64,000 nt of DNA from an uncultured Spirochaetota bacterium (GTDB lineage: Bacteria; Spirochaetota; Brevinematia; Brevinematales; JAOACQ01): NCBI GenBank assembly GCA_963768055.1, contig CAVYGN010000002.1, positions 1,216,001 to 1,280,000 on the forward strand. The letters run 5' to 3'. The position numbers were made by a program, and so were the translations under genes. Shown in pieces: positions 14,303 to 35,990 of the stretch; within the stretch, counting starts at the first letter, position 1, and each line of letters opens with the position of its first letter. Under the pieces are notes generated by a model. It was not told the DNA's origin, did not search any database, and worked only from the letters and a program-made list of their open reading frames with translations.

Positions 14303-14407
14303 TGGATTACCCCCTGAAAACGGGAAAGGAACGGAGAGCTTAGTGCCTGAATAACTCCATGTGTTATTCGCTTACTTAAAGTTTATTCGCAATTGATTTA
14401 AAATAGG

Positions 14408-14436
14408 ATTTTAGTAAAATAGGGGGTAAAAGTCAA
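14408..14436 (-). promoter_or_regulatory. sigma70 promoter of fumC
   Basis: TTGACT-17-TAAAAT on the minus strand. Confidence 0.7.
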
Positions 14437-14496
14437 AATAATGAAATGTTTAAATTGCTCGTTTGTTCTTTACCGGCCGAACCACGATCCCTGCCG

Positions 14497-14775
14497 TCAG
14501 TTAGCCAGGGGTTGATCCCCCATTCCGGTAAATCCCGGCAGTTTTTCCTCGCTCATTACTACATAATCCTTGATAAGGTGCTTGATGTCGTTTATGAACG
14601 ACTGGGTCCATTCGGTATCATCGACGCCAACCATTGTCTCCAAGTTGAGTTCCCTTTTAAACTTCCTGAAACCCGTTTTGTTCCGAGGATACCTCTGTAT
14701 CTTATGAACCCCTTCCTCGATGCTATGAGCGATAAAAAAACTACTGGCGACCTTTACGGCGATTTTTTTTTCCAT
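14497..14775 (-). CDS. Hypothetical 92-aa protein, probably sigma54-driven and leaderless
   Basis: ATG lies at the predicted start site of the -24/-12 promoter; no family recognised. Confidence 0.55.
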   Translation of the reverse strand: MEKKIAVKVASSFFIAHSIEEGVHKIQRYPRNKTGFRKFKRELNLETMVGVDDTEWTQSFINDIKHLIKDYVVMSEEKLPGFTGMGDQPLAN

Positions 14776-14786
14776 AATAATACTTA

Positions 14787-14802
14787 AGCAAATATAATGC
14801 CA
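14787..14802 (-). promoter_or_regulatory. sigma54 (-24/-12) promoter
   Basis: TGGCAT-TATAT-TTGCT matches TGGCAC-N5-TTGC. Confidence 0.8.
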
Positions 14803-14922
14803 TATTTTTTAAAGTAAAATAGCCTGCGGTGAAAAATAACCGATAGTATTAAGGAATAAGGAATTAGATAAATGATCGACAGGTGCTCCCGCTTTTTATA
14901 TGTGTATTGTGAGAACGATCAA

Positions 14923-14971
14923 TGTTTAAATATTTGAACATATTGTTAATAAACTGACAATTTTTTACCAG
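14923..14971. promoter_or_regulatory. Putative enhancer (UAS) for the sigma54 activator
   Basis: TGTT-N10-AACA followed by CTGACAATTTTTTACCAG; similar array at 35941-35990. Confidence 0.65.
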
Positions 14972-15045
14972 GTTTTCATTGGATGTCAAGCTCGTTCATT
15001 TTATTAAAATGAGTTTGATAAGATATGCATCTATCGTTGTGAGAA

Positions 15046-15069
15046 GTCGGCGGGCGAAAGCCCGCCGGC
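15046..15069. terminator. GC-rich hairpin just 3' of the activator gene
   Basis: GTCGGCGGGC-GAAA-GCCCGCCGGC; strand ambiguous. Confidence 0.6.
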
Positions 15070-15073
15070 ATTT

Positions 15074-17890
15074 TTATTCTATCTTCATTTCTTTGATCTT
15101 GTAAGTTAGAGTGGTTCGTTTTATTCCGAGTATGGCAGCGGCGGCTGATTTGTTTCCTTTCGCTTTGTCGAGGGCCCATTCGATAATTTTTCTTGAGTAC
15201 TGGTTGATCATTCCGTCATAGGTATCAACGGAAGAGATCTCAAGTCCGGCTTCGGGAACGGAATCTTCCACCGGAGCGGCATCCATGATCGAGGGGAAAT
15301 GGGTTAATTTCAAAACCCTTTTGTCACCCCTGGATACTGCAAGCTGCGACATAGCCCTGATGATAAAATTCTCCATCTCACGGATATTTCCCGGCCAGGA
15401 ATAGCTTTCGATTTTCTCTATTGCCGCCTGTTCGATAGTAAGATCAGGGGGAAGATCGAATTCCCCGGCATACTTTTTAATAAGGAAATCCGCAAGAATC
15501 GGTATGTCGTCCTTTCTTTCCCTGAGGGGCGGAATATCGATGACAAAGACACTGATCCTGTAGAAAAGGTCATCCCTGAAGCTTCCTTTTATTATCATAT
15601 CGTTCAGGTCCCGGTTTGTCGCAAATACGAACCTGCATTTCGAATTAACAACCATGTTGCTTCCGATAGGACTGTATTTATTTTCCTGCAGCAGTCTGAG
15701 AAGCTTCGACTGTATGTCGAGAGGCATTTCTCCAATTTCGTCGAAAAACAATGTGCCGCAGCCCGCCGCCTCGACTTTTCCTTCCCGGCTCGACTTTGCG
15801 TCGGTGAAGGAGCCTTTTACATGACCGAATAGCTCTTCTTCCCATAAGGTTCTCGGTATTGCTGCGCAGTTTACAGTTATAAAGGGGACATCGTCCATAT
15901 TGCCGGTATAATGTATTAGCTTTGCTATCAGTTCTTTCCCTGTGCCGGTATCCCCTGTTATTAAAATCGGTTTTGAAATCATTATTGCCTGATTGACTTT
16001 ATCGATAACATCCTGCATTTTTGAGCTTTGATAAACAATGGAGCTCTTTTCATCGAGCCTTTTTTCCTGTCTCTTGGAAATGTGTGTTGTAAGTTTTTGT
16101 ACTTCGCTTTCAACCCTGTCCTTCATGTATTTCATCATGTAAAATTCGGACGTCTTTTTCTTGACCTGGTGTTCGAGCTCTTCAGTCTGTTTCTGGATTT
16201 TCTGGAACATAATCGTGTCCATCAGGTTCTCATTGATCTTTGTCCGGATTATCTCGTACATCTTGTCGTATTTCGGCCCTAATTCCATCATTATAAATCC
16301 GAGCTGAGATTCCCTGTTGAACATATTTTCAAGAATATAAGTGCGGCGTTTTTCTTCTTTAATCAATCCGGCCGGAATGATCTCGCCAGGCCTGAATGCG
16401 ATGCCTCCATGCGGTAAGTCAAGGCGGGCCCCGTTTTGATAGCCGAAAATCAGGGCGGCTTCCTGCTTCGGGTTCTCGGGGTAATTGTACATGGATATGA
16501 AACAGCTGCCTATTCCAAAGGTTGTAAGGCTGGACTGAATAATATCGAACTGTTTTTCCAGATCGAAAGTACTGCTAAGTTCCGCTCCGAAATCGCTCAG
16601 TTCCTCCAGTTTTGCGGTTTCATGGATTTTTTGGAATAGCCCGTATTTCTGCATTGCATCATCGTTCATTACTTGGGCCTTATGGAAGAAGTATTCTGCG
16701 TTTACAAGTTCAGGTCCCTCGCCGATTAAAGACAGGGTATAACTCATGAATATTAAAAGGATGTTCTGAAGATGCCGGAGATTTCCTGTACTTTCGTAGC
16801 ATTCGTCTATGGCCCGGTTCCATGCCGAAAAGAATAAATTGCCATTCCCGCTTGAAAGGGCCGCCTCAAGCCCGTCAATGAGTCCCGGGGCGACAGAAAC
16901 GACCCAGCTGTAGTCAGGGTTAAAAGATTTAATTTCATCGGTAAAAGAGGAAATTATAAACTCCCGGTCATTTTTCAGATTGTAAGGCCGGTTGGTCTTT
17001 ATGCTGAAATGATCCGCCGAATAGCATCCGCATGATTCTCTTACTACAAACTCGGTGGATAGGCATGTGACCTGAGGTATTTCCTCTCCCCGAATGTTTC
17101 TCAAAAGAAGTTCGGCGGCAGTCCATGCCTGGTTGTATGTCGGCTGCCTGACTGAAGTGAGGTTAACGCTTTTACAATAGTCGATATCGTCAAAACCTGT
17201 TATCGGGATGAAATCGGACGATATTTTTCCCCTCGACTTAATTTCATTCATTATTCCCAGGGCCATAAAATCGTTTGAAGATACTATAGCGTCGAAATCG
17301 GCCTTTCTTTTATCCAGCAATTCTATAATTGCTTTTTTCCCCGAATCGATACTGAAATCGCCTTCATAGATCAGGTTTTCGTCGCAGGGCAGTTTATAAT
17401 AATCCAGCATTCTGCGGTACGTGTCAAGGCGCATACATGAATCGGTGTTAACCGGTAAACCCGAGATAAAAGCTATTCGTTTATAGCCATGTATCTCAAC
17501 CATATGCTTCATCACATCCCTGATGCCGGTTTCGTTGTCAACAGTTACGGACGGGATATTAAGCGGGTTCTTGCCAATGCTGACTGCCGGTATTCGCCGG
17601 AGTTTGAACATCATATTTTCTACCGCTTTTTTCCCGGCATAATTTTCGAGCGATGAAGTAGTGATTAAGAAACCGTCTATCCTGTCGTAGTCGATGAAAT
17701 CGAAGAGAACGTTCCTGTTTTTCTCCCACTTGAAGGGTGAATCGAGCTTTCCCCCGACAAAGCAAATCAAATTTAAATCGTTCTTTTCAGAAAACTCGGA
17801 AACACTGGAAAAGATGTCTGAGTGATAAGGCGAATAAAGCCAATCAATTAAAAGAGCTATAGTCATTCTATTTTTAAGAATATCCGGCAC
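15074..17890 (-). CDS. sigma54 enhancer-binding protein with N-terminal LacI-type sugar-binding domain
   Basis: VTVDNETG/TGFDDI/TSVRQP sensor; Walker A GDTGTGKE; GSFTDA loop; FFDEIGE; WPGNIRE; Fis HTH. Confidence 0.93.
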   Translation of the reverse strand: MPDILKNRMTIALLIDWLYSPYHSDIFSSVSEFSEKNDLNLICFVGGKLDSPFKWEKNRNVLFDFIDYDRIDGFLITTSSLENYAGKKAVENMMFKLRRIPAVSIGKNPLNIPSVTVDNETGIRDVMKHMVEIHGYKRIAFISGLPVNTDSCMRLDTYRRMLDYYKLPCDENLIYEGDFSIDSGKKAIIELLDKRKADFDAIVSSNDFMALGIMNEIKSRGKISSDFIPITGFDDIDYCKSVNLTSVRQPTYNQAWTAAELLLRNIRGEEIPQVTCLSTEFVVRESCGCYSADHFSIKTNRPYNLKNDREFIISSFTDEIKSFNPDYSWVVSVAPGLIDGLEAALSSGNGNLFFSAWNRAIDECYESTGNLRHLQNILLIFMSYTLSLIGEGPELVNAEYFFHKAQVMNDDAMQKYGLFQKIHETAKLEELSDFGAELSSTFDLEKQFDIIQSSLTTFGIGSCFISMYNYPENPKQEAALIFGYQNGARLDLPHGGIAFRPGEIIPAGLIKEEKRRTYILENMFNRESQLGFIMMELGPKYDKMYEIIRTKINENLMDTIMFQKIQKQTEELEHQVKKKTSEFYMMKYMKDRVESEVQKLTTHISKRQEKRLDEKSSIVYQSSKMQDVIDKVNQAIMISKPILITGDTGTGKELIAKLIHYTGNMDDVPFITVNCAAIPRTLWEEELFGHVKGSFTDAKSSREGKVEAAGCGTLFFDEIGEMPLDIQSKLLRLLQENKYSPIGSNMVVNSKCRFVFATNRDLNDMIIKGSFRDDLFYRISVFVIDIPPLRERKDDIPILADFLIKKYAGEFDLPPDLTIEQAAIEKIESYSWPGNIREMENFIIRAMSQLAVSRGDKRVLKLTHFPSIMDAAPVEDSVPEAGLEISSVDTYDGMINQYSRKIIEWALDKAKGNKSAAAAILGIKRTTLTYKIKEMKIE

Positions 17891-17928
17891 TTAATACCTG
17901 CGATCTATGATTTATAAAACCCGGTATT

Positions 17929-18027
17929 ATTATAATCCCGGAGGGAATAAATATCAAAATTTTATCATCACCGGTTGCGGTGACCTTTTTTCGTATTTTT
18001 GACTTCATGCCGGAAAAAATGTATAAT
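17929..18027. promoter_or_regulatory. Divergent sigma70 promoters (activator gene / radical SAM gene)
   Basis: Minus: TTGATA(17957-17952)-17-TATAAT(17934-17929). Plus: TTGACT(17999)-17-TATAAT(18022). Confidence 0.75.
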
Positions 18028-18064
18028 TTATGCGGAAAGTTTTTCAAAAACAGGAGAAAAAAAT

Positions 18065-19225
18065 ATAAACGGTTCGATAATACTGGATAAAGAAAGGGAA
18101 TTTCAAGGGAATATAACCGATGGTAATATATCCTTCGGCTTAGTGAAAGATAATAATTGCTGCAGATTAGGTTTGAGTTTGTTTGAACATATATACCCCG
18201 AGGCTGTCCTGGAAATATCAGGAAAAAAGTTTAGCGTTCATGGCTGGTATAATGAGATAGTAGTTATAGACGACAGAAAAGAAATATCGATTAAAATTAA
18301 AACGAACGCTGAAAATGTTAAAGTCAGTTGGTGGGATGACAATTCGGATGATTATAAAGAAAAACAAACTTTTATCAAAAACATTAAGCCTAAATATGAG
18401 TACTATTTAAATTGGCACGTCACCAGGAATTGCAATCTTAGATGCGATTACTGTTTTATCGATCTTAAGGAAAGAGCTTCCGATAAAATTCCTACAATAG
18501 ATATACCCAGGCTGCGGGATGTTTTATCGAGATTCGATAAGCAAGTAAACATTAATCTATCCGGCGGAGAACCCTTTCTTATAAAAAATTTCGTGGAAGC
18601 ATGCTCTATGATGACAAAAAATCATTATATAAGTATTGCAAGCAATCTGACAAGCGACAGGGTAAAAGAATTGATCGAAAGTGTCGATGTAAAGCATATC
18701 GATTTCTTTGTTTGCTCGTTTCATCCTATCGAACTCTCCAAAAGAAACGCTGTTGATAAATTCATGAGGAATTATTACTTAATAAAAGAAGCCGGAATAA
18801 ACGCCAGGTTCTCGATAGTTCTTTGGCCCCCGATCATTGAACGCCTGCCCGAATATTTAAAAATGATTAACGATAAAAGCATCAGAATCTATTATGAACC
18901 TTTCCTGGGATTTTACAATAAGATGGAATATCCCGCAGCTTACACCGAAAAAGAACTTCGTTCTCTTGGAATAATAAAAAAGGATATTGGACAGACTTTT
19001 TACAGAAAAGGGAACTACTGCAACGCGGGTTTTAATGCCTGCATAATATTAGCCAACGGAGATGCGATCGATTGTTTCGAGAAAAAGAACAAAATCGGCA
19101 ATATCTATGAAGATATAAATTTCTTAAAAAAGATGGCCAAATGCGATCAAAGATTCTGCAAAAATCCTGTTTCCAAATTTCTTCCTATGCTCTATAATCT
19201 GGCAAAAGACCGGATATCGGATTAA
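18065..19225 (+). CDS. Radical SAM protein with N-terminal 'WW' domain and C-terminal Cys-rich twitch-like domain
   Basis: CNLRCDYC, SGGEPF, YCNAG...C...C; start uncertain (in-frame ATA 8 nt after AGGAG). Confidence 0.85.
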   Translation: MNGSIILDKEREFQGNITDGNISFGLVKDNNCCRLGLSLFEHIYPEAVLEISGKKFSVHGWYNEIVVIDDRKEISIKIKTNAENVKVSWWDDNSDDYKEKQTFIKNIKPKYEYYLNWHVTRNCNLRCDYCFIDLKERASDKIPTIDIPRLRDVLSRFDKQVNINLSGGEPFLIKNFVEACSMMTKNHYISIASNLTSDRVKELIESVDVKHIDFFVCSFHPIELSKRNAVDKFMRNYYLIKEAGINARFSIVLWPPIIERLPEYLKMINDKSIRIYYEPFLGFYNKMEYPAAYTEKELRSLGIIKKDIGQTFYRKGNYCNAGFNACIILANGDAIDCFEKKNKIGNIYEDINFLKKMAKCDQRFCKNPVSKFLPMLYNLAKDRISD

Positions 19226-20345
19226 TTCTGCCCGGCCTGCCTTTGTTTCTCATTCCTCAGAAATTCCAGCATATCCTTCCGGTCGATTCTTTTTGAAACA
19301 GGGTAGTATTTTGCGGTTATATAACCGTTCTCTTTCGGGAGCTGGATCCATATATCCAGATCAGTGTCCTCGACATAGTCATTTATGACAATTAACCGCT
19401 GTTTTTCAGGCGGTATCGCCAGTATAAGATTCTTCAAATGATCCAGCTTTTCTCTGTCCTTAAAATCTATTTCAATGTACTTCGTGCTATTATCTATATA
19501 TACTATATCTTTGTTGTTTTCACCCCTGAGTAATTCAAGGGCTTTCTCCTTAGGCAAATTCAAAGCCTCAGGGTGTTTTGTGACAAAGTACTCCGAATTC
19601 ATGTTATACCCGGGGATATTTTCTTTCTTGATTACAAGATCGCTTCTTTCTCCATGATATTGGTGGAAGACTTCAAGTCTTGAATTCACGACAATAGGGA
19701 TTTTTTTTTCATACAACATATAACCGAAGGCAATATCTTCCACTCCCCAGCCTTTGAAATTTTCATCGAATCCGCCAGCCGCTTCGAGGAATTTTCTGGG
19801 GATGGCCATATTGCAGGTAAAGACCTGCCCCCATGGAACATGATGGCGCTGTTGTTATAGGAAGCCGATTCGTAAAAAAAATATCTGTACTCCAGGATGT
19901 CGAAATTCCGGTTATCGAAGCGATTCTTTGTGAAAATATCGCCTCTTATTATTTCCTCGTAAGTGGTCGGCGTATTTAATAAAAGCCTGTTACCTATAAC
20001 GGCAATATCATTTTTCATCGAAAAGCATCTGTTCAGTTCGGATAAATAGTCCGGCCTTACGACAATATCAGAATCGATAAATACAATTATTTCACCTGCT
20101 GACTGCTTCCAGCCATGATTCCTGCATTTGGCCCGGCATGAATCTTTGCCCCTTTCCAGATAGAAATATTTTAAATCGTAATTACGGTTAACTCCTTTTA
20201 TATATTCTCCCGAATTGTCCGTCGAGCCGTCATCTACTACGATAACCTCATAATAGCCGTAACCCGGCTGGTAGTTTAGCGCCTCAAGAGTATTTTTCAG
20301 AAGAACCCTGTTGTTATAGGTTGGAATGACGAAGCTATATTTCAT
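19222..20345 (-). pseudogene. GT2 glycosyltransferase split by a frameshift near 19835
   Basis: SFVIPTYN, VVDDGS and FIDSD in one frame; PWGQVFTCN...GGFDENFKGWGVED continues in the -1 frame. Confidence 0.85.
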
Positions 20346-20391
20346 GATTTACAAACTCCCAGTTCATTGGAATATTCACTGTTAATATATC

Positions 20392-20464
20392 AGTATAAAT
20401 TATAAAAATATCCCGGTCAATCTCTCTATAATATTTTGATTATAGTGCGGTTTTATGCTATTAT
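20392..20464. promoter_or_regulatory. Divergent sigma70 promoters (GT2 / radical SAM)
   Basis: Minus: TTGACC(20420-20415)-17-TATACT. Plus: TTGATT(20436)-17-TATTAT. Confidence 0.7.
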
Positions 20465-20513
20465 AAATCAAAGTCGGAGCTTGATATGGTTAGTATTTTC
20501 AAGGTGGAATTTT

Positions 20514-21710
20514 ATGAAAGAAGATATATTTACAGCTTTAAAGCAAAGAAACGAAGCGGCTGTTTTTGAAGTTAAAAATAAAAAAACATTTTTAATACCT
20601 AAGGAAAGTATCCGGTTCAAATGGGATCCATTTATCTGGAAACCGAAAATTGTGATAGGAACTGCTGTTATAGAAGGTGATTATCACAATTTAAGCCTGG
20701 AGTACAAAGATAGAAAAGAGGATTTTGAAGGCTGGTACAAGGAATTCCGGTTTGACCTGAAAAACCCGGATGAAGATATGATTTTTACCGTTGACAGTGA
20801 AACAAGTAGCAGAAATTTAAAGATCGAATGGTGGATCGAAACCTCTGCCCCCGATGAATACGATGCGGCGCTAAGCTGGGTTATTACCGAAAAATGCAAC
20901 CTTGATTGTGAATACTGCATCTTCCATGCGCACGGGGTTTATCATACGAATAACGAGGCTATTTCCGCCATAAGGATTGAAGATTTATTGTCAACGATTA
21001 ATAAGACCGGTAAAAAGTTTTTAATAACATTCACGGGCGGCGAACCTTTTCTTGTCCCCAATTTTCTAGAGGCTTGCCAGTGTATAAGTGAAAAACATTA
21101 TATAGGGGTGGTTTCCAATTCAGTCCATCCCGACATAAAAAAGTTTGCCGAAACGATAGATCCCGGCAAAGTAGCTAATTTTTTATCATCACTGCATATA
21201 AAAGAATTTAAAAAAAAGAACCTGACCCAAAAATATATCGATAATGTCCTGCTTTTGAAGAAGAAGGGATTTAACGTCATTTCTACAGCCGTAGCTTATC
21301 CGCCCCTTTTATCGGAGATCGTTCATTACAGGGAATATTTCACCTCCAGGGGCATCGTTTTTAATACGGCATTTTTTATAGGCGAATACGATGGCAAGGT
21401 TTATCCCGAATCTTATACTCATGAGGAAATAGAAAAGTTCGGCCTGGAAGACAGGAAAATAAATAAAATTTTATCGCGTAAAGGCATGCTGTGCAATGCC
21501 GGGTACAGCGCGTTCGCAGTATGGGGCGACGGGACAGTTATTGTTTGTTATGATGTTCCTTCAAAAAGAGGTCATATTTATAGAAATATAGATTTTGACA
21601 AATATATTATAAAATGCCCTTCGGAACAATGCTCCTGTCCATTCCCGGATAATTACAAGGCGCTGTTTAACAGGGCGATAAATGAAAAGGCGCCGGTTAA
21701 AAGCGTTTAA
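20514..21710 (+). CDS. Radical SAM protein with N-terminal 'WW' domain and twitch-like C-terminus
   Basis: CNLDCEYC, TGGEPF, LCNAG...C...CPSEQCSCP; ATG at 20514 after AAGGTGG; paralog of 18065..19225. Confidence 0.9.
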   Translation: MKEDIFTALKQRNEAAVFEVKNKKTFLIPKESIRFKWDPFIWKPKIVIGTAVIEGDYHNLSLEYKDRKEDFEGWYKEFRFDLKNPDEDMIFTVDSETSSRNLKIEWWIETSAPDEYDAALSWVITEKCNLDCEYCIFHAHGVYHTNNEAISAIRIEDLLSTINKTGKKFLITFTGGEPFLVPNFLEACQCISEKHYIGVVSNSVHPDIKKFAETIDPGKVANFLSSLHIKEFKKKNLTQKYIDNVLLLKKKGFNVISTAVAYPPLLSEIVHYREYFTSRGIVFNTAFFIGEYDGKVYPESYTHEEIEKFGLEDRKINKILSRKGMLCNAGYSAFAVWGDGTVIVCYDVPSKRGHIYRNIDFDKYIIKCPSEQCSCPFPDNYKALFNRAINEKAPVKSV

Positions 21711-21773
21711 GTATTAGTCTTTTGATAAGAAGGATATATTATTATTTAAAATCTGTATCTGGAGCTGGTAATA

Positions 21774-23453: not shown

Positions 23454-23460
23454 GCGCCGG

Positions 23461-26839: not shown

Positions 26840-26848
26840 GGGATATTC

Positions 26849-28570: not shown

Positions 28571-28587
28571 ATTTTATACTCCATTAA

Positions 28588-29556: not shown

Positions 29557-29558
29557 AA

Positions 29559-30551
29559 TTAAACGCCTCCCCCATTAGTCCGAGCGGAAGGATTTATCTT
29601 TGTAACCATTGTATCGGTTATTCCCCCTGTGCACCATTCTTTACTGCAAACATGGGGTTCCGAAGGAAAATTCAATTCGGGATCGCTGATGTTGCCGATC
29701 TTTCCGGAATCACCGCACCAGCTCCTGTAGATATCTCCGCTTATATCGACGACAAGAAGTTCAAGACCTATGTAGCAGTTCCATCCTGGCCATGCATGCT
29801 TATTCTGAGTAATAATATCTCCCGGTTTAGTCAGTTCCTCGGAACCGTCGTCGTATACGAGCTTCATCAATCCGCGGTAGCTATCCCTCGTCCTTTTAAG
29901 TTTCAGCCTGCTGTTGATATCATGGCTTGCTTCAACGATCTGCTTCCTTTGTTCCGGAGTATAGGGATAAGGTTCGATAAAATCCCTCAGCACTATCTGA
30001 AGATCGATAGTTACATCGTCTGTTTCATTCAAGACCTTAAATGCGGCGTCAAGACATTCCTGAAAGTGGTCGGGATGAACCATTATGTTCACATGAGTAT
30101 AAACATCGCTTTTGATAAGGTTTATGACATTGATGAAGTGGTTAAGCTTAGTAAATTCGACGTGATAGCTTAAGCTGGCTTGAAAGAGATATTTTTTTGC
30201 CTCTTCCCAGAATATCAATTTCGGAGATCCGTTACTGCTGATGCTTACCTTCTGACCATTCTCTTTCTGACTGCGTATCAATGTGATAAAGTCCTTGAAT
30301 AGGGTCACTTCGCCGCCTGTATATAAAAAATATACTTCCTTTTTGAGTTTCTTTACGTAATGATCGATAATACGCTGGGAAAAGTCCATTATTTTATTGA
30401 TCGGCATGAAGGGGTAGGTCCCCGCATGCGTTCGCGGAGGGCAATATGAGCATAGAAAATTACACACATTGCTCACTCCCCAATCAACGATAAGTATATT
30501 CTCAGTCTTTTCGAACTGGTGCCTGAGCATAACCACATTTTTATCTTTCAT
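29559..30551 (-). CDS. Radical SAM protein with twitch-like C-terminus
   Basis: CNFLCSYC, TGGEVT, GWNCYIG...WC...C...C. Confidence 0.9.
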   Translation of the reverse strand: MKDKNVVMLRHQFEKTENILIVDWGVSNVCNFLCSYCPPRTHAGTYPFMPINKIMDFSQRIIDHYVKKLKKEVYFLYTGGEVTLFKDFITLIRSQKENGQKVSISSNGSPKLIFWEEAKKYLFQASLSYHVEFTKLNHFINVINLIKSDVYTHVNIMVHPDHFQECLDAAFKVLNETDDVTIDLQIVLRDFIEPYPYTPEQRKQIVEASHDINSRLKLKRTRDSYRGLMKLVYDDGSEELTKPGDIITQNKHAWPGWNCYIGLELLVVDISGDIYRSWCGDSGKIGNISDPELNFPSEPHVCSKEWCTGGITDTMVTKINPSARTNGGGV

Positions 30552-31621
30552 AATATAGATTCCTTATAGATCTTTACGACGCTATCCGCTTCCGTATTCT
30601 CAACCTGATGCAGGTTTATGAAATCGATATCCGCTATGATTTTATTGCTGATGAAACTATCGAATAGCTTTGGCGGGTTCGCTGTCCTGTATTTTTCCAG
30701 AAGATCGGGATAAAAACGACGGAATATTGACGTCACGATCGTTGACCGGTGCATTGGTGATTCCTCCCGGGGCTCTATAGTATTGAATTTTTGTCGGCTT
30801 TTGAGAGGGTAGAAAAAGGGACAATCAAAAAAATTCTCTTTCGGATCGGGCATACAGCTTTCAACCCCCGAAATTTTACAAGCCGCAGAAAATTCTTTGC
30901 AATATTCGAGACGCGCTGAAACTATTTCATCGATATCGCTTACCTGCTTTGTTAAAAAGTAGCATTGGATGGCGCTAAGACGATAATTGCAGCTCGCAAC
31001 CTCGAGTTTTCTCCGCGGTAAGGAAGGGCTTAATCCCCAATCTGATATAGCTTCGCATTCGGCTGCAAGCTCGGGGTCATTGGTGCTGATAAGGCCCCCT
31101 TCCCCGGAATTGATGATCTTTGAGCTTTGAAAGCTGAATGTGCCTGCATTCCCAAACGCGCCGGCCTTTATTCCATCCGCTGAACATGAGAAAGCCTGTG
31201 CGCAGTCTTCTATCAGGGCTATATTCCTGCTTCTGCAGTAATCCCTAATCTCGAAAATTTCCCGATTCATAAAACCGGAGAGATGGACGAGAATAACCGC
31301 CTTGACCCCGGACAGTTCCCTTTTTTTAAGAGATTCCAGGGTTAAACCAAAATATTCGGGGCTTACATCGGCAAAAACGGGTATCAGGCCGCAGTCAGCT
31401 ACGGCTGTCGCCGTTGCAATAAAAGACAGGTCGGGAATAATTACAAGGTCCCCCCTGTTTAATCTAAGGCCGCGCAGGGCAACTTCAATAGCAATGGTCC
31501 CATTGGTTACAGGTATAACATATTTACAACCAAGATAAGAGCTTATGCTGCTCTTGAATTCATGTATAACCTCTTCCTCAGGCTTGAAATGGGGAATAAA
31601 CGACTTAATATTATATTTCAT
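30548..31621 (-). CDS. DegT/DnrJ/EryC1/StrS PLP aminotransferase
   Basis: VTNGT, IEDCAQA, FSFQSSK (PLP Lys), GEGG. Confidence 0.92.
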   Translation of the reverse strand: MKYNIKSFIPHFKPEEEVIHEFKSSISSYLGCKYVIPVTNGTIAIEVALRGLRLNRGDLVIIPDLSFIATATAVADCGLIPVFADVSPEYFGLTLESLKKRELSGVKAVILVHLSGFMNREIFEIRDYCRSRNIALIEDCAQAFSCSADGIKAGAFGNAGTFSFQSSKIINSGEGGLISTNDPELAAECEAISDWGLSPSLPRRKLEVASCNYRLSAIQCYFLTKQVSDIDEIVSARLEYCKEFSAACKISGVESCMPDPKENFFDCPFFYPLKSRQKFNTIEPREESPMHRSTIVTSIFRRFYPDLLEKYRTANPPKLFDSFISNKIIADIDFINLHQVENTEADSVVKIYKESIL

Positions 31622-31623
31622 AT

Positions 31624-33000
31624 TTAAACCGGCATCATACGGTTTAATTCGTTTTTAAAGTCATTTAAAACGAAAGTATATTGAAGCTTGCCGTTTTTAT
31701 CTACATATGGCGGAAGGAGTATGTAAAATTGATTTTGGCCGGAAATACTGCAAACTTCCTTCGGGTCTAGCCTTATCCAGCGCTGGCCTTCATTGCTGAG
31801 AAAATAAACGGGTACAGGTAATGTGTTTACAAACTTATTCCTATCCTGGGTGCCGCGTATGCAGAGCCCGCGAATTGAATCGGAATTGAACCAGGCGAAA
31901 TGGTACTTATTATGGGGCCATTCCTGCCAGTCTTCGATCCTGATATTATAATGAATATTTTGGATTATATCGCGATAAACCGATAAAGAAGGGGTTTCCT
32001 TGAATTTGGAAAGATTGCCCTTTTCAAGGCCCAGCCCCCCGTAATCACGGAACTGATAAAGGGTTATACCCGCCAGCCATGGAAAATCGCCGCGGTTTAT
32101 TCTATCGTAGACGCTGCCCACCATCCGGGCCTGAGCTTCCGCACCGTCCACATCCGAATCTGTATTGAACTCATTGATAAATAGAGGTTTCAAGCTCAAG
32201 CCATTATGCCAGATCATATTCAGATAGCATTCTTCGATCAAACGCCACCAGTCTTCAACCGTACCTTGAAAATATGTGTTTTTGCTCTCGGGTGTAATGG
32301 TTTCTTCATAGGGCCAGGCATAGTGCAGGGATGCATATTTGTCAAGCGACCAATAGTCTGCTGTTTGAAGCGCTTCTCTCATCTCGTCCTGATTCAGGCG
32401 GAGAAACATATCGCAGACCACCTTATCCTTAACATAAAAATCGCTGCTTAAGCTGAAGACCGTAAATATGTTAGAAGAATTTGCCTTTACTATCTTGTGG
32501 CATCTTACAAAAAAATCGCTAACCTCTTTATAATTGTAGAATTTGTTGAAAGGGAACCATGTGCCGTTGCATTCATGGTTGACGCGAAGAAACACTCGTC
32601 CGAAAGTGGTGAGGGAACGGACCACCTTTTCAATATCCTGGTCGGACAGGGAAAGATCCATTGTAAGAGTCAAGTGGATATCCGAACCGTATCGTTTAAT
32701 ATCTTCGAATTGCTTTTGAGAATTCCCTCCCTCCACCAACAGGTTGAAGGGATTATAATCCTCATAATCATAACCCCAGGCAAAATTGATATCTTCGCCG
32801 TGTTCTATTTCCGATATCTTTTTATGGGGAGACCACTTTTCATGATAAGGATAATAGGCCTTAAGCACCTGGATGCCGTCGTGAATTCTTCCCAACTTTG
32901 AAAAGATATAATCCATGGGTACAAAATCGCTTCTTTCACTTTCATTAGACATTATCAGCATAGGTTTTTTTCGATGTAATGTGCATGGAAATGCCTGCAT
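31624..33000 (-). CDS. Glycoside hydrolase, GH26-like (clan GH-A)
   Basis: FLRVNHECNGTW acid/base motif and PLFINEF nucleophile motif; no signal peptide. Confidence 0.65.
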   Translation of the reverse strand: MQAFPCTLHRKKPMLIMSNESERSDFVPMDYIFSKLGRIHDGIQVLKAYYPYHEKWSPHKKISEIEHGEDINFAWGYDYEDYNPFNLLVEGGNSQKQFEDIKRYGSDIHLTLTMDLSLSDQDIEKVVRSLTTFGRVFLRVNHECNGTWFPFNKFYNYKEVSDFFVRCHKIVKANSSNIFTVFSLSSDFYVKDKVVCDMFLRLNQDEMREALQTADYWSLDKYASLHYAWPYEETITPESKNTYFQGTVEDWWRLIEECYLNMIWHNGLSLKPLFINEFNTDSDVDGAEAQARMVGSVYDRINRGDFPWLAGITLYQFRDYGGLGLEKGNLSKFKETPSLSVYRDIIQNIHYNIRIEDWQEWPHNKYHFAWFNSDSIRGLCIRGTQDRNKFVNTLPVPVYFLSNEGQRWIRLDPKEVCSISGQNQFYILLPPYVDKNGKLQYTFVLNDFKNELNRMMPV

Positions 33001-33012
33001 AATCCGCTCCTC

Positions 33013-34188
33013 TTATTGATAACGAGGCCGGGATAAAGCCTCTTTCCGGTATTCGGTCATGTTTCCCAGGTCCACTACGGGATCATCGAAAATCGGATCT
33101 TTCAAAACATCCAAGAACTTCTCGAACTCTTGATTAAAATTTTTCCACACCGCATTCGCTTCATATTCTCCCGTTTGCCAGGATTTCCAGTCATTGAGGA
33201 GGTTGAATATGAAAAGATCCACTCCAAAACTCTTTCCTATCCTGATCGCGTCGGGCATTTCGTGATAATTTTTCTTTTGCACTACGAAAGCGAGCATAAA
33301 ACGTCGTATTTTGCCCTCTCTCCTGAGAGAAGCTAAAAATTCAATATTAGAAAGAAGCTTTTCATAGGAGCCGTTAACGCGGATCTGTTTATAGGTTTCG
33401 GGGCGCGAAGCATCCAGCGATACTATAACTTCGTTTATATTCGAATGGATTTTTTTCATCTTCCGCCAGGCATCCGGTGTAAACAGGATCCCGTTGGATT
33501 GAATATTAATATCGAGGCGGGGATACTTTTCGCCGTCAAAGTTATAAAGAAAATCGGTAAAAATCTTCGAAATAAAGGGTTCGCCGGCCCCGGTCAGATT
33601 GAAACGGCCTATATTTTCAAAACCGTTTTCTTTAACCTCGCTGAGAAGTTTCTTGTGAATTCCAAGCCTGAATAAATATTCCGGGCCGCTCCTGTAGGTT
33701 ACTGTCTTTTTACGGCAGCTCGGGCAGGCCAGGTTACAGCTTTCATCATAAGCCAAATTGTAGTTGGCGGGGAATATATCCACTTTAGTATTTTCTTCAA
33801 GGATATACCGGATCCACGGAGCATATTTAGTTATCCTGCTGGCATGTACGGGAGATAATCCGGCGGGATTTTCCAGTTGTTCCCTTGTGTAAAGATAGTA
33901 GTTATCATTGCAATAAAAGGGGCATTGATGCCAGTCGCAGAAGGAATAACTGCCGTCTAAAATACTGGCCCGGATAGCCTGCAGTATATCGGAGTTCCAG
34001 ATTTCCTTTAGAGTTTTTTCAGAAAAATCGCCGATCCATTCGGGCATCCACGACTCGCTGCAGCACCTCACCCCGTAATTGCTGTGAATATCGACATTTG
34101 TAAAAGGCTGAAGGCAATATTTCCCGTGTAAATCCTTGGGTTTTTTTAAAGTCCCCTTATTGCTTTCAAATCCTCTTTTATTAATCAC
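33013..34188 (-). CDS. Radical SAM protein with N-terminal SPASM/twitch-like domain
   Basis: YCLQPF...RCC...IG...LKEIWNS...C..C precedes CNLACPSC; GAGEPF. Confidence 0.88.
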   Translation of the reverse strand: MINKRGFESNKGTLKKPKDLHGKYCLQPFTNVDIHSNYGVRCCSESWMPEWIGDFSEKTLKEIWNSDILQAIRASILDGSYSFCDWHQCPFYCNDNYYLYTREQLENPAGLSPVHASRITKYAPWIRYILEENTKVDIFPANYNLAYDESCNLACPSCRKKTVTYRSGPEYLFRLGIHKKLLSEVKENGFENIGRFNLTGAGEPFISKIFTDFLYNFDGEKYPRLDINIQSNGILFTPDAWRKMKKIHSNINEVIVSLDASRPETYKQIRVNGSYEKLLSNIEFLASLRREGKIRRFMLAFVVQKKNYHEMPDAIRIGKSFGVDLFIFNLLNDWKSWQTGEYEANAVWKNFNQEFEKFLDVLKDPIFDDPVVDLGNMTEYRKEALSRPRYQ

Positions 34189-35668
34189 TTATTATTCTCC
34201 TTCGATGGCCGGTCAAAACCGGCTTGAAAATAGTAGCGGCATTGGAATTTTCTTTTATTATTCTCCTTCGATTGCCGGCTAAAACCGACTTAAAAATAGT
34301 ACCGTCATTGAGATTTTCTTTCAGGTTTTTAACCAGATCATGGAACCTTTTTTGATGGACAAAGTGGTATTCGTATATACCTTTGAGATAATTATTCTTT
34401 CCCGAGGCATTTCTTGACTGTTCCATATGGTAAAGATTCGTCATATGATCAGCCAGGAATTCAAGCTCATGGCGGGAGAGATTCTTACATGGATTTATTG
34501 TTATGCTATTTGTGAAAGGAATGAAAAGCGACGGTTTTTTTTTGTCATCGGGTATTAAATCAATGAAATTGGGTTCATAAAAAGAAATCTTGATGCTGGT
34601 AGTGCCGATCCTTTCTGCAAGTTCGAAGGTATCCTTCACTGTCCACCAGGTATCCTGGGGAAAACCTATCATGAAAAAGGCCAAAGTAAATATATTTTTC
34701 GAATTCAGATGATTGACCAGCCTCTTTAATTTCACTTCGTCGCAAAGAGGTCTGTGAAAATACCTGTGAATTTCATCGGATGCGGTTTCTACGCCGAAAC
34801 AAATCGTATCCATACCCGCCTTGATCATTAAATCGATCAGTTCCGTATCGACCGATTCGAGACGCGTTTCACAAGACCAGTTGAACTTCAGGCCTTTATC
34901 TATGATCATACGGCAAATGGATGCCGTTCTTTCAGGTTTATAAGTAAAATACTGATCGCGGAATGATATTTTTTTAATACCCAATGAAAGAAGATACTCG
35001 ATATCTTCACAAATTTTTTCGTTAGAACGAAACGACATTTTATTTCCGTAGAAACGGGCGTATGGACAATAAGTGCATCCTATTGTGCAACCGCGGCTAG
35101 TATGCAGGGAACCGCGTAAAATCCCATCCATATCGCGGTATCCTTCATAGGGGAAAAGAGTAAAGTCGGGAGTCGGCAGATCATCGAGACCTATTTCCTC
35201 TTTACCGGAAATCATTTTGTGTACAAAGAACTCTAACGGAACAAGAGCGATTTCATCTATTTCGGGAATATTGGTTTTTATCCAATCCGCTAAAATCCTT
35301 GCAACGTATCCGGCTAATACTATCCTGGAATCCGGATAGCGTATCTTGATAGTTCTGGCTAAGTCCAGATCGCAGTGTATAGTGGGCGCCTCCGCCTTAA
35401 TAATAATGACATCGTAGTGTTCTTTCAGTTTTTCCATCAGCATTACAGGCATGATTCTATTTAAATTCGCATCGATGACATGGAGATCGATGGAAGGATC
35501 CTTACTTGCAATAGTAGCTGCATATATTAAGGATAAATCCGGGTAGATTTGGGGCTGATGATCGGAAACTCCCAGATCGCCATGCATATCTCCATGCACA
35601 GTAATACCGTAAAACGGTCTCAGAATGAGAAGTTTGGTTTTAACTTTGACGTTCTGTTTTCTGCTCAT
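34181..35668 (-). CDS. B12-binding-domain radical SAM protein (class B-like)
   Basis: TSRGCTIGCTYC, FRDQYF, CFGVET, FMIGFP; N-terminal Rossmann-type region. Confidence 0.88.
   Translation of the reverse strand: MSRKQNVKVKTKLLILRPFYGITVHGDMHGDLGVSDHQPQIYPDLSLIYAATIASKDPSIDLHVIDANLNRIMPVMLMEKLKEHYDVIIIKAEAPTIHCDLDLARTIKIRYPDSRIVLAGYVARILADWIKTNIPEIDEIALVPLEFFVHKMISGKEEIGLDDLPTPDFTLFPYEGYRDMDGILRGSLHTSRGCTIGCTYCPYARFYGNKMSFRSNEKICEDIEYLLSLGIKKISFRDQYFTYKPERTASICRMIIDKGLKFNWSCETRLESVDTELIDLMIKAGMDTICFGVETASDEIHRYFHRPLCDEVKLKRLVNHLNSKNIFTLAFFMIGFPQDTWWTVKDTFELAERIGTTSIKISFYEPNFIDLIPDDKKKPSLFIPFTNSITINPCKNLSRHELEFLADHMTNLYHMEQSRNASGKNNYLKGIYEYHFVHQKRFHDLVKNLKENLNDGTIFKSVLAGNRRRIIKENSNAATIFKPVLTGHRRRIISD
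34189..34320. repeat. 66-bp tandem duplication
   Basis: 34189-34254 vs 34255-34320, 57/66 identical. Confidence 0.9.
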
Positions 35669-35672
35669 AAGG

Positions 35673-35708
35673 TTACATCCTTTCCGGCAATGAATAATAA
35701 AAAAACAT
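35673..35708 (-). CDS. Candidate 11-aa small ORF MFFYYSLPERM
   Basis: GAGGGG RBS 9 nt upstream; lies in the sigma54 leader; 3' end overlaps the RBS of the next gene. Confidence 0.35.
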   Translation of the reverse strand: MFFYYSLPERM

Positions 35709-35794
35709 ATAAATTAACCCCTCACTATTATCAGGTATTGAAACTTTACATCCACATTTAAATTATTCGAAAAATCATAATTATACTTTTAAAT

Positions 35795-35810
35795 GGCAAA
35801 TGTTGTACCA
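35795..35810 (-). promoter_or_regulatory. sigma54 (-24/-12) promoter of the biosynthetic operon
   Basis: TGGTAC-AACAT-TTGCC. Confidence 0.75.
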
Positions 35811-35940
35811 ACCCAAAAGAACTCATAACATTCGATAGGAATTAAAATAATAATTGATTGCAGAACAATGAATTAGGATGTTATTTTTATTTGGGGACAA
35901 ATTTCCGATAAAACTTCAGCCGGCTGACCGGGAATAAAAC

Positions 35941-35990
35941 TGTTGAAAATATTCAACAAATGTTTACAGAATTCGACAATTCTTTGTCAG
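35941..35990. promoter_or_regulatory. Putative enhancer (UAS)
   Basis: TGTT-N10-AACA, TGTT-N10-GACA, GACA-N6-TGTC; resembles 14923-14971. Confidence 0.65.

Follow-up and report, generated by a model that had tools for sequence, protein, structure and literature searches.

The best explanation of the nine-gene minus-strand operon described here and its satellite genes is a pathway, spread by horizontal transfer, for tailoring a molecule of carbohydrate origin; a beta-linked glycoside or short oligosaccharide, or a derivative of either, is the most likely candidate. The operon lies in a 64,000-nucleotide stretch of DNA from an uncultured Spirochaetota bacterium, referred to here as the window. 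In its fuller form, an accessory pathway that acts on a glycoside or oligosaccharide by oxidation, amination, methylation, or deoxygenation, exports the product, and is induced through a sugar sensor, the proposal is one that we regard as evenly balanced. The chemistry, the product, and every reaction step are those that we infer.

Gene organization, distribution, and control

The operon runs from 35668 to 23461, with gaps of -29 to +17 nt between neighbours, and encodes, in order, a B12-like radical SAM (rSAM) enzyme, an N-terminal-twitch rSAM enzyme, a GH26-like protein, a DegT aminotransferase, a small rSAM enzyme, a short OYE, an FkbM methyltransferase, and two ABC half-exporters. The tight coupling of these nine genes in the original prediction is borne out, and every gene that it listed is present where it had been placed. 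The features are as follows:

35795..35810, minus: sigma54-type -24/-12 element TGGTACAACATTTGCC, ~127 nt 5' of the first ATG of the operon
34181..35668, minus: B12-like (class-B architecture) rSAM enzyme, 495 aa (PF04055, 70.5 bits)
33013..34188, minus: rSAM enzyme with N-terminal twitch/SPASM-like Cys domain, 391 aa, the signature gene (Pfam SPASM and rSAM)
31624..33000, minus: GH26-like (clan GH-A) cytoplasmic enzyme with C-terminal beta-sandwich (profile, fold, motifs)
30548..31621, minus: DegT/DnrJ/EryC1-family PLP aminotransferase (PF01041, 196.5 bits)
29559..30551, minus: small rSAM enzyme, 330 aa (rSAM330), with five further invariant Cys (PF04055)
28588..29556, minus: shortened OYE-family FMN oxidoreductase, 322 aa (PF00724, 117.8 bits)
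26849..28570, minus: FkbM methyltransferase with C-terminal PKD-like and two CBM-like 'WW' beta-sandwich domains (TIGR01444, model)
25067..26839, minus: ABC half-transporter (TMD-NBD), exporter type (ABC_membrane and ABC_tran)
23461..25095, minus: second ABC half-transporter, probable heterodimer partner (ABC_membrane and ABC_tran)
21774..23453, plus: second FkbM methyltransferase (FkbM559), tail as in the operon FkbM (paralog, 29% identity)
20436..21710, plus: satellite rSAM enzyme (rSAM424) with N-terminal 'WW' beta-sandwich module (PF04055)
19222..20345, minus: GT2 glycosyltransferase with one frameshift near 19810-19838 (domain search)
17999..19225, plus: satellite rSAM enzyme, rSAM424 paralog, 29% identity (PF04055)
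15074..17890, minus: sigma54 enhancer-binding protein with LacI-type effector domain lacking an HTH, middle region, AAA+, and HTH_8 (Pfam)
14787..14802, minus: sigma54-type element TGGCATTATATTTGCT, membership in the system uncertain
14497..14775, minus: orphan 92-aa ORF, membership in the system uncertain

The assemblage goes beyond chance, because the same genes co-occur in other genomes. The operon is collinear in three Spirochaetota MAGs at 47-82% identity; its complete nine-gene order is found in loci L001 and L002, and likewise, minus the ABC pair, in L003. The heart of the operon, comprising the twitch rSAM, GH26-like, and DegT genes, occurs in 9 of the 80 loci fetched, and these nine span Spirochaetota, Bacillota, and Gammaproteobacteria. 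While DegT is present in all nine, the B12-like rSAM accompanies the heart in seven, rSAM330 and OYE in six, an SDR that is absent from the window in five, and FkbM in four. A failure of the homologs to co-occur elsewhere would have counted against the original prediction, but they do co-occur.

The activator contains Sigma54_activat (2.4e-61), HTH_8, and N-terminal Peripla_BP_1/3 domains, and a Walker A motif and a GSFTDA loop are visible by eye in its translation. Promoter-like -24/-12 elements are present in both of the expected upstream regions, and TGGTACAACATTTGCC keeps GG and GC with two mismatches to the 16-mer. The weight of these elements rests on position, not frequency: sigma54-like matches are not enriched across the window (3 observed vs 7.15 +/- 2.7 in 100 simulated sequences), nor are matches to a looser pattern (20 observed vs 36.75). 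No shared upstream activator site was found. L001 carries an activator and the element TGGCATATATCTTGCA before its operon, and L002 has a classical LacI repressor at the position of the activator. The predicted sigma54 control is particular to this genome and L001 and is not a family-wide trait, while the predicted sugar signal is backed by both the LacI-type sensor and the L002 repressor. Binding of a sugar to the LacI-type domain of the activator would switch on the sigma54 promoter at ~35800.

Enzymes and their predicted roles

All five rSAM ORFs exceed the PF04055 cutoff of 29.5 bits (39.0-70.5 bits) and display CxxxCxxC by eye in their translations, which confirms the number originally counted. 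None of them reaches a curated NCBIfam cutoff, and no rSAM, GH, or DegT protein reaches an equivalog cutoff in that collection. The best NCBIfam matches of the B12-like rSAM are PhpK, HpnJ, and AprD4, all far under cutoff, and AprD4 is also its nearest solved structure (4e-17, over the rSAM core only); a GDMHGDLG motif is invariant at its N-terminus. The label 'B12-type' given to it earlier is sustained by the class-B architecture but not by the B12-binding Pfam family PF02310, whose match to the N-terminal 185 aa falls under cutoff (16.5 bits, E 0.0075). This enzyme may catalyze C-methylation or dehydration.

The twitch rSAM has its SPASM match at residues 25-89 and its rSAM domain at residues 151-313, scores 79 bits on N_Twi_rSAM (cutoff 170), and retains the invariant cysteines C25, C42, C43, C84, and C89 along with C151/C155/C158. 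In a BtrN-like reaction, it would oxidize a sugar hydroxyl to a ketone, which the DegT enzyme would convert to an amine; the logic of combining an rSAM enzyme with a DegT enzyme has precedents in BtrN/BtrS, DesI/DesII, AprD4/AprD3, and GenK. The solved structures nearest to DegT are perosamine synthetase (8e-39), followed by 2-deoxy-scyllo-inosose aminotransferase (6e-34). The small rSAM330 is always paired with an OYE-like gene, as in six of the nine related loci, and the two products might jointly perform a dehydration and reduction that amounts to deoxygenation. The PF00724 match of the OYE-like protein spans only profile positions 140-339, and its N-terminal 100 aa match the family weakly.

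A Pfam search of the GH26-like ORF, whose database gene call begins at 32961, returned no match, PF02156 included. The GH26-like identity originally proposed nevertheless holds despite this silence. The family profile matches the GH26 lichenase of C. thermocellum (E 2.3e-8), chains of GH26 lichenase occupy ranks 2-7 in a Foldseek search with the AF2 model (pLDDT 91), and the motifs NHE..NG.WF and NEFN align with HEANGDWY and AEF of the lichenase, so that the fold and both catalytic glutamates are retained by profile and model. The translation has no signal peptide, which points to a cytoplasmic enzyme that could trim, transfer, or dehydrate a glycosidic intermediate. The cluster-linked GHs come together as one split (SH-aLRT 100) in a quick ML tree built from 81 GH homologs. 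Weighing against the proposal, 71 of 80 GH homologs are solitary, in unrelated contexts.

The twitch-rSAM gene lies directly upstream of the GH gene in the window and in all nine related loci, where its product is 56-75% identical, and its top NCBIfam matches are 'maturase' families (tungsten-cofactor oxidoreductase, 84 bits; metalloenzyme, 80 bits; both under cutoff). These observations would suit a maturase that modifies its GH26-like neighbour after translation, in the manner of anaerobic sulfatase maturases; however, the DegT, SDR, GT2, and CBM-like modules all point to sugars. A variant of this idea, a RiPP system, could draw on the NHLP bacteriocin exporters among the best NCBIfam matches of the ABC proteins, again under cutoffs. 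It is opposed by a comparison of 362 intergenic ORFs, in which no small ORF was shared across lineages and the near-identical L004-L006 trio accounted for all matches; by the 92-aa ORF, for which no relatives were found; and by a domain search that detected neither RRE/PqqD nor peptidase domains. No conserved precursor peptide was found. We consider the maturase reading and its variant very improbable.

The two FkbM methyltransferases score 87 and 98 bits on TIGR01444 (cutoff 37.7). Their tail is a rare three-domain beta-sandwich comprising a PKD-like and two CBM-like modules, and its model (pLDDT 90) is closest to PKD-CBM44 and a mixed-linkage-glucan binding protein; since the Foldseek TM-scores are low (0.24-0.33), a carbohydrate-binding function is a lead only. 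One module of the tail is also fused to both satellite rSAMs, and natural fusions of the types FkbM-tail-rSAM and rSAM-FkbM-tail were found. FkbM would perform O-methylation, with the CBM-like tail possibly anchoring the enzyme on the glycan.

The satellite genes of the original prediction, i.e., two rSAMs, a GT2, and a second FkbM, are all present, but the GT2 gene is split by its frameshift. Its N-terminus matches NodC (2.6e-9, far under cutoff), and intact homologs of 358 and 392 aa lie within the L003 operon. FkbM559 has a low GC3 of 0.33, and its residues 456-559 are 60% identical to residues 35-138 of rSAM424; a DNA repeat connects 20538-20836 with 23139-23437. The 'WW' module is absent from homologs of the rSAM424 core, one of which is fused to a GT8. 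The satellites may represent a genome-specific extra tailoring set.

Substrate, export, and competing readings

Both ABC proteins combine ABC_membrane with ABC_tran, and a domain search found no peptidase domain in either; the first is 56-59% and the second 59-62% identical to its counterparts in L001 and L002. Eight of the nine related loci contain an exporter (ABC-2 in six, a half-transporter pair in two), and these genes, with those of the window, back the export step predicted earlier, in which an ABC heterodimer would release the product. The ABC-2 ATPase is DrrA-like, and its match to NodI (~1e-30) is far under cutoff.

The carbohydrate nature of the substrate is backed by the GH26 fold, the CBM-like modules of the methyltransferase and two rSAMs, and twitch-rSAM homologs in glycan loci. 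The natural fusions of rSAMs with the FkbM tail, the GT8 fusion of an rSAM424-core homolog, and GH94, GH5, and GH116 genes within or adjoining L007, L008, and L009 add to this link. One such remote twitch-rSAM homolog, on Paracoccus pPZ01, adjoins a GT25, another GT, and a nucleotide-sugar dehydrogenase; another, on Brachyspira pBHWA1, occurs with rfbF, rfbC, an epimerase, a GT, and seven rSAM genes. These loci also suit a reading in which the enzymes decorate the sugars of an envelope polymer, such as LOS, capsule, or flagellin glycan, instead of a free exported molecule, and the transporter moves either the glycan once decorated or an intermediate linked to lipid, as do the proximity of DegT to perosamine synthetase, the match of one FkbM relative to the RfbT family, the GT2 genes in the L003 operon, and the CBM-like tails, which suggest a polymeric substrate. 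However, a scan of the window and six of the loci detected neither a nucleotidyltransferase nor an initiating transferase, polymerase, flippase, or Wzm/Wzt pair, GT2 occurs in only one of the nine related loci and the other eight have no GT within +/-10 kb, the ABC-2 ATPase resembles DrrA, and the GH is cytoplasmic; envelope decoration is judged unlikely.

Catabolism or salvage of an uncommon sugar from plant or algal glycans, in which release by the GH is followed by anaerobic oxidation, deamination, or deoxygenation by the rSAMs, OYE, and DegT, would likewise be sugar-induced through the LacI-type sensor, and the LacI repressor of L002 fits it as well. The hosts of the related loci are polysaccharide degraders according to database records, the wider GH family is frequent in fibrolytic Firmicutes, the L007 operon includes a GH94 gene, and L008 and L009 are flanked by three GH5 genes and a GH116 gene, respectively. 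Against this, neither a solute-binding protein nor an importer is present, and the transporters are of exporter types, either PF00664 half-transporters or DrrA-like ABC-2; catabolic pathways do not typically include methyltransferases or a B12-like rSAM, and the operon has no kinase, aldolase, or other funnel into central metabolism. We rate this reading as quite improbable and retain the tailoring and export of a carbohydrate-derived molecule.

As for the product classes first suggested, a glycolipid is not supported, and an aminoglycoside-type pathway stands by analogy only, since the window has no carbocycle/inosose synthase, sugar nucleotidyltransferase, or intact GT.

Comparison with known systems

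The locus was originally described as matching no characterised cluster, in agreement with which no collinear match was found in NCBIfam, the PDB, or the literature searched. Butirosin BtrN with BtrS/BtrR, apramycin AprD4 with AprD3, and GenK are tailoring enzymes of aminoglycosides and aminocyclitols. Similarly, a twitch-type rSAM adjoins DegT here, another rSAM has a reductase partner, and a B12-like rSAM is present; 2-deoxy-scyllo-inosose aminotransferases are the second-best solved relatives of DegT (6e-34), and AprD4 is nearest to the B12-like rSAM (4e-17). However, the operon lacks an inosose/carbocycle synthase and a pseudo-oligosaccharide GT, the similarity does not extend beyond superfamily cores, the twitch domain lies at the N-terminus, and the host bacteria belong to Spirochaetota, Bacillota, and Gammaproteobacteria rather than to actinomycetes or Bacillus. 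DesI/DesII of desosamine biosynthesis is a deoxygenation pair in which a DegT-family enzyme and an rSAM act on the same sugar carbon; the operon shares this combination, but its DegT scores 113 bits on PLP_DesI, far below the 650-bit cutoff, and dTDP-sugar genes are absent.

In Nod-factor systems, the GT2 NodC, the FkbM-type methyltransferase NoeI, and the ABC-2 exporter NodIJ act on a decorated oligosaccharide. The present loci likewise contain a GT2, an FkbM-family methyltransferase, and an ABC(-2) exporter, with the NodC and NodI matches under cutoffs; however, equivalents of NodA and NodB are absent, and the rSAM-DegT-GH core has no Nod counterpart. CtLic26A (C. thermocellum endoglucanase H; PDB 2bvd, 2cip, 2vi0) shares with the GH26-like protein the (beta/alpha)8 fold, at TM 0.65-0.70 normalised by target, and the HE.NG.W and.EF. 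catalytic motifs, but identity is ~14%, and the protein described here has an extra C-terminal beta-sandwich, is cytoplasmic, and is encoded in an rSAM operon.

The rSAM-rich rfb/glycosyltransferase block of Brachyspira hyodysenteriae plasmid pBHWA1, to which PMC4267127 relates, is also a spirochaete locus that mixes seven annotated rSAM genes with sugar-nucleotide and GT genes. However, identity between the two twitch rSAMs is only 24%, over 68% of the length, and the block lacks an ABC pair as well as GH26-like, DegT, OYE, and FkbM-tail genes. According to PMC12983305, the pyrrolamide 'man' cluster uses a GH-like enzyme, a DegT enzyme, and NAD(P) oxidoreductases to convert a sugar to an exported small molecule, and shows that a GH-like protein can serve as a dehydratase in a biosynthetic cluster. 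The likeness is one of gene types: as described there, 'man' is actinomycete, has no rSAM set, and starts from a nucleotidyltransferase-made GDP-sugar.

Gene content and genomic setting

The gene set that the original prediction placed at 14.5–36 kb is present in full, as judged by ORF listing and by Pfam and NCBIfam scans, and all five radical SAM (rSAM) ORFs carry CxxxCxxC and score over the PF04055 cutoff. Nine genes form an operon on the minus strand, in which adjacent genes are spaced by −29 to +17 nt, and four satellite genes are found between the operon and the regulator.

Features of the locus (window positions)
35668 to 23461 (−): operon, genes 1 to 9
Gene 1 (−): B12-like rSAM, 495 aa
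Gene 2, 33013–34188 (−): rSAM with an N-terminal SPASM/twitch segment (twitch rSAM), 391 aa
Gene 3, 31624–33000 (−): GH26-like protein without a Pfam match (GH), 458 aa
Gene 4 (−): DegT aminotransferase
Gene 5, 29559–30551 (−): small rSAM (rSAM330), 330 aa
Gene 6 (−): shortened OYE-family protein, 322 aa
Gene 7 (−): FkbM methyltransferase (FkbM573), 573 aa
Genes 8 and 9 (−): ABC half-transporters, 590 and 544 aa
Satellite (+): rSAM408
Satellite, 19686–20345 and 19222–19809 (−): GT2, two overlapping ORFs
Satellite, 20436–21710 (+): rSAM424
Satellite (+): FkbM methyltransferase (FkbM559)
Regulator: 938 aa, with N-terminal Peripla_BP_1/3, a sigma54-interaction AAA+ domain and HTH_8

The locus is bordered on the left by fumC (12923–14302) and on the right (36199–53815) by genes for aconitase, sdhAB, sucCD, 2-oxoglutarate dehydrogenase E1/E2/E3, citrate synthase, PEP carboxylase and lipB/lipA; its 22 kb look like an island set into a TCA-cycle/lipoate housekeeping neighbourhood. 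The GC3 of the satellites (17999–23453) is 0.33–0.40, lower than that of the operon (0.42–0.53) and of the flanking housekeeping genes (0.49–0.59), which suggests that the satellites have a separate and more recent origin. The GT2 gene is present as predicted, but it is split into two ORFs; alignment with two intact homologs of 358 and 392 aa, both from a related spirochaetal locus (L003), places a single frame change directly after '...NSAIM', near 19810–19838, consistent with a pseudogene or with an error of assembly. Outside the locus, a separate unit at 5690–8744 comprises a MATE efflux gene, a class-I O-methyltransferase with a dimerisation domain and a TetR regulator, and 55514–61646 encodes an RND efflux system and a TetR regulator belonging to it. 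A defence system was considered with PADLOC and rejected, the matches being partial rSAM-core matches to pVip (32–59 bits) and AAA/HTH matches to RtcR-type models only.

Core enzymes and the shared beta-sandwich module

GH has no Pfam family at E ≤ 0.001 and does not reach the PF02156 cutoff; therefore, it is GH26-like and not a filed GH26 member. Its homologs at E ≤ 0.001 number 78, all 78 of which have an empty Pfam annotation and nearly all of which are named hypothetical. About 66 clusters (90% identity; P0001–P0066, the window's own included) are at least 40% identical to the window protein, and 12 further, more distant clusters lie beyond them. A profile of 26 homologs matches the GH26 lichenase of C. 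thermocellum (E 2.3e-8), and in the profile alignment with 2bvd, NHEaNGnWF lies opposite HEANGDWY, and lnEfN opposite AEFAS. All 26 sequences retain Glu130 and Glu264 of GH, and the lichenase glutamates aligned with them, in the HE.NG and.EF motifs, are those that we take to be the catalytic acid/base and nucleophile, respectively. The AF2 model (pLDDT 91.1, pTM 0.92) comprises a TIM barrel and a C-terminal beta-sandwich, and together with Foldseek it predicts a (beta/alpha)8 fold of clan GH-A. GH26 lichenase chains take Foldseek ranks 2–7 (E 2e-11 to 1e-10; target-normalised TM 0.65–0.70), other clan GH-A enzymes follow below rank 7, and rank 1 is chain 6zpl_C, filed under a glycine-transporter entry. 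By eye, no signal peptide is seen at the N-terminus of GH or of two stand-alone homologs, and the protein has no match on plasmids.

The first operon gene had been labelled a B12-type rSAM. Its rSAM core is confirmed (PF04055, 70.5 bits; Cys194, Cys198 and Cys201 invariant), but the B12-binding domain stays under the cutoff, with a weak match of the N-terminal 185 residues to PF02310 (E 0.0075; 16.5 bits, cutoff 32.1), so the label is architectural. The nearest solved structure, for the rSAM core only, is AprD4, which is not known to use cobalamin. Near the N-terminus (residues 26–33), GDMHGDLG is invariant in seven of seven family members; it resembles DxHxxG, the cobalamin-binding motif, without being identical to it. 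A 66-nt tandem duplication at 34189–34321 (2.0 copies, 86% match), whose end coincides with the twitch rSAM start codon, corresponds to a repeated 22-aa C-terminal tail; the homologs align to about residue 471 only, and protein P0237 has no real similarity to the enzyme.

In the twitch rSAM, a SPASM Pfam match (residues 25–89) precedes the rSAM core (151–313), and five N-terminal cysteines are invariant. The protein scores 79.1 bits against NF033640, the NCBIfam model of an N-terminal twitch subfamily, under the curated cutoff of 170, and no curated NCBIfam model claims any core protein. The phage collection holds no match to it, and its plasmid matches are remote only; in the ESM Atlas, the look-alikes of this protein and of rSAM330 belong to unnamed rSAM clusters, many members of which are viral. 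Remote homologs of the twitch rSAM are located in glycan loci, as would be expected if the system decorated surface glycans, yet no genes for polymer assembly were found in the window or in the six related loci scanned, and this explanation is unlikely. rSAM330 contains five additional invariant cysteines, and the shortened OYE is always its partner. A circular permutation linking rSAM330 to the twitch rSAM was rejected, the profile-profile comparison giving generic core similarity only (probability 15%). The nearest solved relatives of DegT are perosamine synthetase and 2-deoxy-scyllo-inosose aminotransferases.

Both FkbM proteins exceed the cutoffs of TIGR01444 (87.1 and 98 bits; cutoff 37.7) and PF05050 (62.8 and 67.8 bits; cutoff 22.7), and each ends in a CBM-like 'WW' beta-sandwich tail. 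A search of 1.84 billion representatives with the 343-aa tail of FkbM573 gives 55 proteins at E ≤ 0.001, almost all being FkbM proteins of the same build and about 560 aa. Its AF2 model (pLDDT 90.2) contains three beta-sandwich domains, with a WW motif closing each of the last two; the best Foldseek match is the PKD-CBM44 pair of a C. thermocellum cellulase (E 4e-10), and ColG collagen-binding domains and a mixed-linkage-glucan surface binding protein are also among the best. The TM-scores are low (0.2–0.3) because the query is multi-domain, and a single PKD domain reaches a target-normalised TM of 0.78. Residues 35–138 of rSAM424 share 60% identity with the C-terminal 104 residues of FkbM559, and a DNA direct repeat (20538–20836 and 23139–23437; 76–82% identity) joins the 5' end of the former gene to the 3' end of the latter, which points to recent domain shuffling within the locus. 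Homologs of the rSAM424 core lack the module (the closest is 47% identical across 66% of the query), and one of them is fused to a GT8 domain; natural fusions occur in two representatives, FkbM-tail-rSAM (913 aa) and rSAM-FkbM-PKD/tail (842 aa). The beta-sandwich module would be a substrate-holding domain, probably for a glycan.

Recurrence and regulation

A scan of the genome collection with the GH alignment gave 243 relatives, and 16 window proteins were compared by tblastn with the best 80 of the 243 loci. The homologs do co-occur in other genomes: in nine of these 80 loci, the twitch rSAM gene lies directly upstream of that for GH, and DegT is present. They belong to three Spirochaetota MAGs (L001–L003), three closely related Bacillota MAGs (L004–L006), [Clostridium] polysaccharolyticum DSM 1801 (L007), a Steroidobacteraceae MAG (L008) and a Marinimicrobium MAG (L009). 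The nine-gene order is complete in L001 and L002, and L003 has it without the ABC pair.

Identity to the window proteins in L001–L003, and occurrence among the nine loci
B12-like rSAM: 55–62%; 7 of 9 loci
Twitch rSAM: 75–76%
GH: 66–69%
DegT: 59–67%
rSAM330: 72–82%; with OYE in 6 of 9 loci
OYE: 62–68%
FkbM: 47%; with the tail in 4 of 9 loci
ABC half-transporter pair: 56–62%, L001 and L002 only; 2 of 9 loci
Extended SDR preceding the operon: 5 of 9 loci; absent from the window
ABC-2 transporter (DrrA-like ATPase and two PF06182 permeases): 6 of 9 loci
GT2: 1 of 9 loci (L003, two copies)

The remaining 71 of the 80 loci carry a GH homolog alone, at 31–39% identity; 31 of them have the full ±10 kb, and the absence of partners is therefore real there, while the twelve scanned with Pfam have varied, unrelated contexts. 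A quick ML tree of 81 GH sequences gathers the ten cluster-linked proteins in a single split (SH-aLRT 100, branch length 2.25), and the window joins the three Spirochaetota with a support of 100. The operon genes are the sole basis in this analysis for assigning the window organism to the spirochaetes. The operon of L003 is extended (290–7364 and 16167–18826) and has seven rSAM genes in one run, the additions being an rSAM/SPASM protein, two GT2s, an ABC-2 transporter, another rSAM, a second B12-binding rSAM and a 414-aa family-less protein. Just upstream of the cluster, an Hsp33 chaperone gene is found in L002 (4230–5177; a Spirochaetaceae MAG) and in L007 (2251–3135), an adjacency that may be a coincidence or mark a linked gene. 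In L004 (4241–6720), as in L005 and L006, the minimal cluster is immediately preceded by genes for a YjjI-like glycyl radical enzyme, its activase and a MerR regulator.

The strict adjacency of the rSAM and GH genes would also suit a maturase or RiPP system, in which the twitch rSAM would modify the GH protein or a peptide. However, none of the 362 intergenic small ORFs of the window and the nine loci is conserved between lineages, Pfam gives no RRE/PqqD or leader peptidase, and the ABC proteins begin directly with the membrane domain; such a system is highly improbable.

The activator matches PF00158 at 2.4e-61 and HTH_8 at 5e-11, and its GAFTGA-type loop reads GSFTDA in translation, a variant that may be functional. 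Residues 1–290 match the effector-binding part of LacI/CcpA/RbsR-type repressors (best match 9e-23) but lack the HTH that these carry, and residues 290–610 have no match. A GG-N10-GC element with two mismatches, TGGTACAACATTTGCC, precedes the operon at 35810–35795 (−), and another with one mismatch, TGGCATTATATTTGCT, lies at 14802–14787 (−), 12 nt before a 92-aa ORF. This ORF, at the left edge of the predicted locus, is an orphan that matches itself only in a search of 5.8 billion clusters; translation from an internal ATG, which has GGAG 4 nt before it, would yield 45 aa. Sigma54-type matches are not enriched in the window (3 against 7.15 ± 2.7 in 100 simulated sequences; 20 against 36.75 expected for a looser pattern), and the promoter argument is therefore positional: two of the three matches fall inside the two upstream regions concerned, which together comprise 828 nt and for which about 0.05 are expected from the simulated rate. 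As an activator site, these two regions share only AT-rich 9–10-mers, and rpoN was not found among the ORFs of the 64-kb window. Since no terminator-like site is listed on the same strand in the stretch from the 14802–14787 element to fumC (14303–14802 for the stretch as a whole), the element might also drive fumC. Rfam gave no match in the window and one tRNA only in seven related loci; thus, no riboswitch or leader RNA is seen in either.

In L001, a different activator (kinase-TPR-GAF-AAA+) is followed by TGGCATATATCTTGCA and then by the SDR and the operon, and in L002 a classical LacI repressor takes the activator's place, with no sigma54-type element. Thus, LacI-type sugar sensing recurs, and sigma54 control would be a local solution. 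The LacI sensor, along with the GH94, GH5 and GH116 genes in or next to L007, L008 and L009, would be in keeping with sugar catabolism; transporters of the exporter type and methyltransferases are out of place in this role, which is quite unlikely.

Proposed function and relation to known systems

The conserved heart of the system combines an auxiliary-cluster rSAM with a sugar aminotransferase and a protein of retaining-type glycosidase fold, and an exporter almost always accompanies them. Analogous pairings are known: BtrN and BtrS, a twitch rSAM dehydrogenase and a DegT aminotransferase, convert a hydroxyl to an amine without oxygen; DesI and DesII combine DegT and rSAM in a deoxygenation; and AprD4 and AprD3 are an rSAM dehydratase and a reductase. 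Because of this rSAM/DegT logic, the solved relatives of DegT and the rSAM330–OYE pairing, we favour a pathway in which a glycoside or oligosaccharide undergoes oxidation, amination, deoxygenation and methylation and is exported. We infer every chemical step of this pathway and give it an even chance. Work on pyrrolamides describes a GH-like enzyme that, with DegT, turns a sugar into a non-sugar heterocycle (PMC12983305); therefore, the final product of the tailoring pathway need not be a sugar.

A more specific form of the tailoring pathway, which is rather unlikely, would be an undescribed pathway of polysaccharide degraders, anaerobes and others, in which rSAMs act directly on oligosaccharides. 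Here, the new CBM-like 'WW' module common to rSAMs and methyltransferases would recruit the enzymes to oligosaccharides, and beta-glucan- or mannan-type fragments would become aminated, deoxygenated and methylated decoy sugars, which, once exported, could serve as glycosidase inhibitors or signals in plant-fibre competition. Fused with a LacI sensor domain, the enhancer-binding protein would then have rewired the pathway to sigma54 control in this bacterium.

If the model holds, the locus represents a small, phylogenetically scattered pathway family, with at least three rSAM subfamilies without assigned chemistry, a GH26-like enzyme working within a biosynthetic-type operon, and a rare substrate-targeting module common to rSAMs and methyltransferases. 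The family is rare, given its approximately 66 plus 12 GH clusters and the 55 representatives of the FkbM tail among 1.84 billion proteins. Radical SAM sugar chemistry has so far come mainly from actinomycete antibiotics; under the model, it would also occur in polysaccharide-utilising spirochaetes, clostridia and gammaproteobacteria of marine or soil habitats, and a new amino sugar acting as an inhibitor or a signal is one candidate for the product. Since the host of L007 is listed as a strain, DSM 1801, the question is directly testable.

The full-text literature searched holds no description of the cluster, although subscription journals or unsearched PMC articles may have one, and uncharacterised rSAM clusters in general are many. 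Aminoglycoside and aminocyclitol clusters have a carbocycle synthase and pseudo-oligosaccharide glycosyltransferases, whereas Pfam and NCBIfam give neither a carbocycle-forming enzyme (2-deoxy-scyllo-inosose or inositol-phosphate synthase) nor such glycosyltransferases in the window and six related loci. Radical-SAM-assisted sugar tailoring with export is a kind of system already known; the gene combination, the pair of an N-terminal-twitch rSAM with a GH26-like enzyme, and the shared beta-sandwich module appear to be undescribed.
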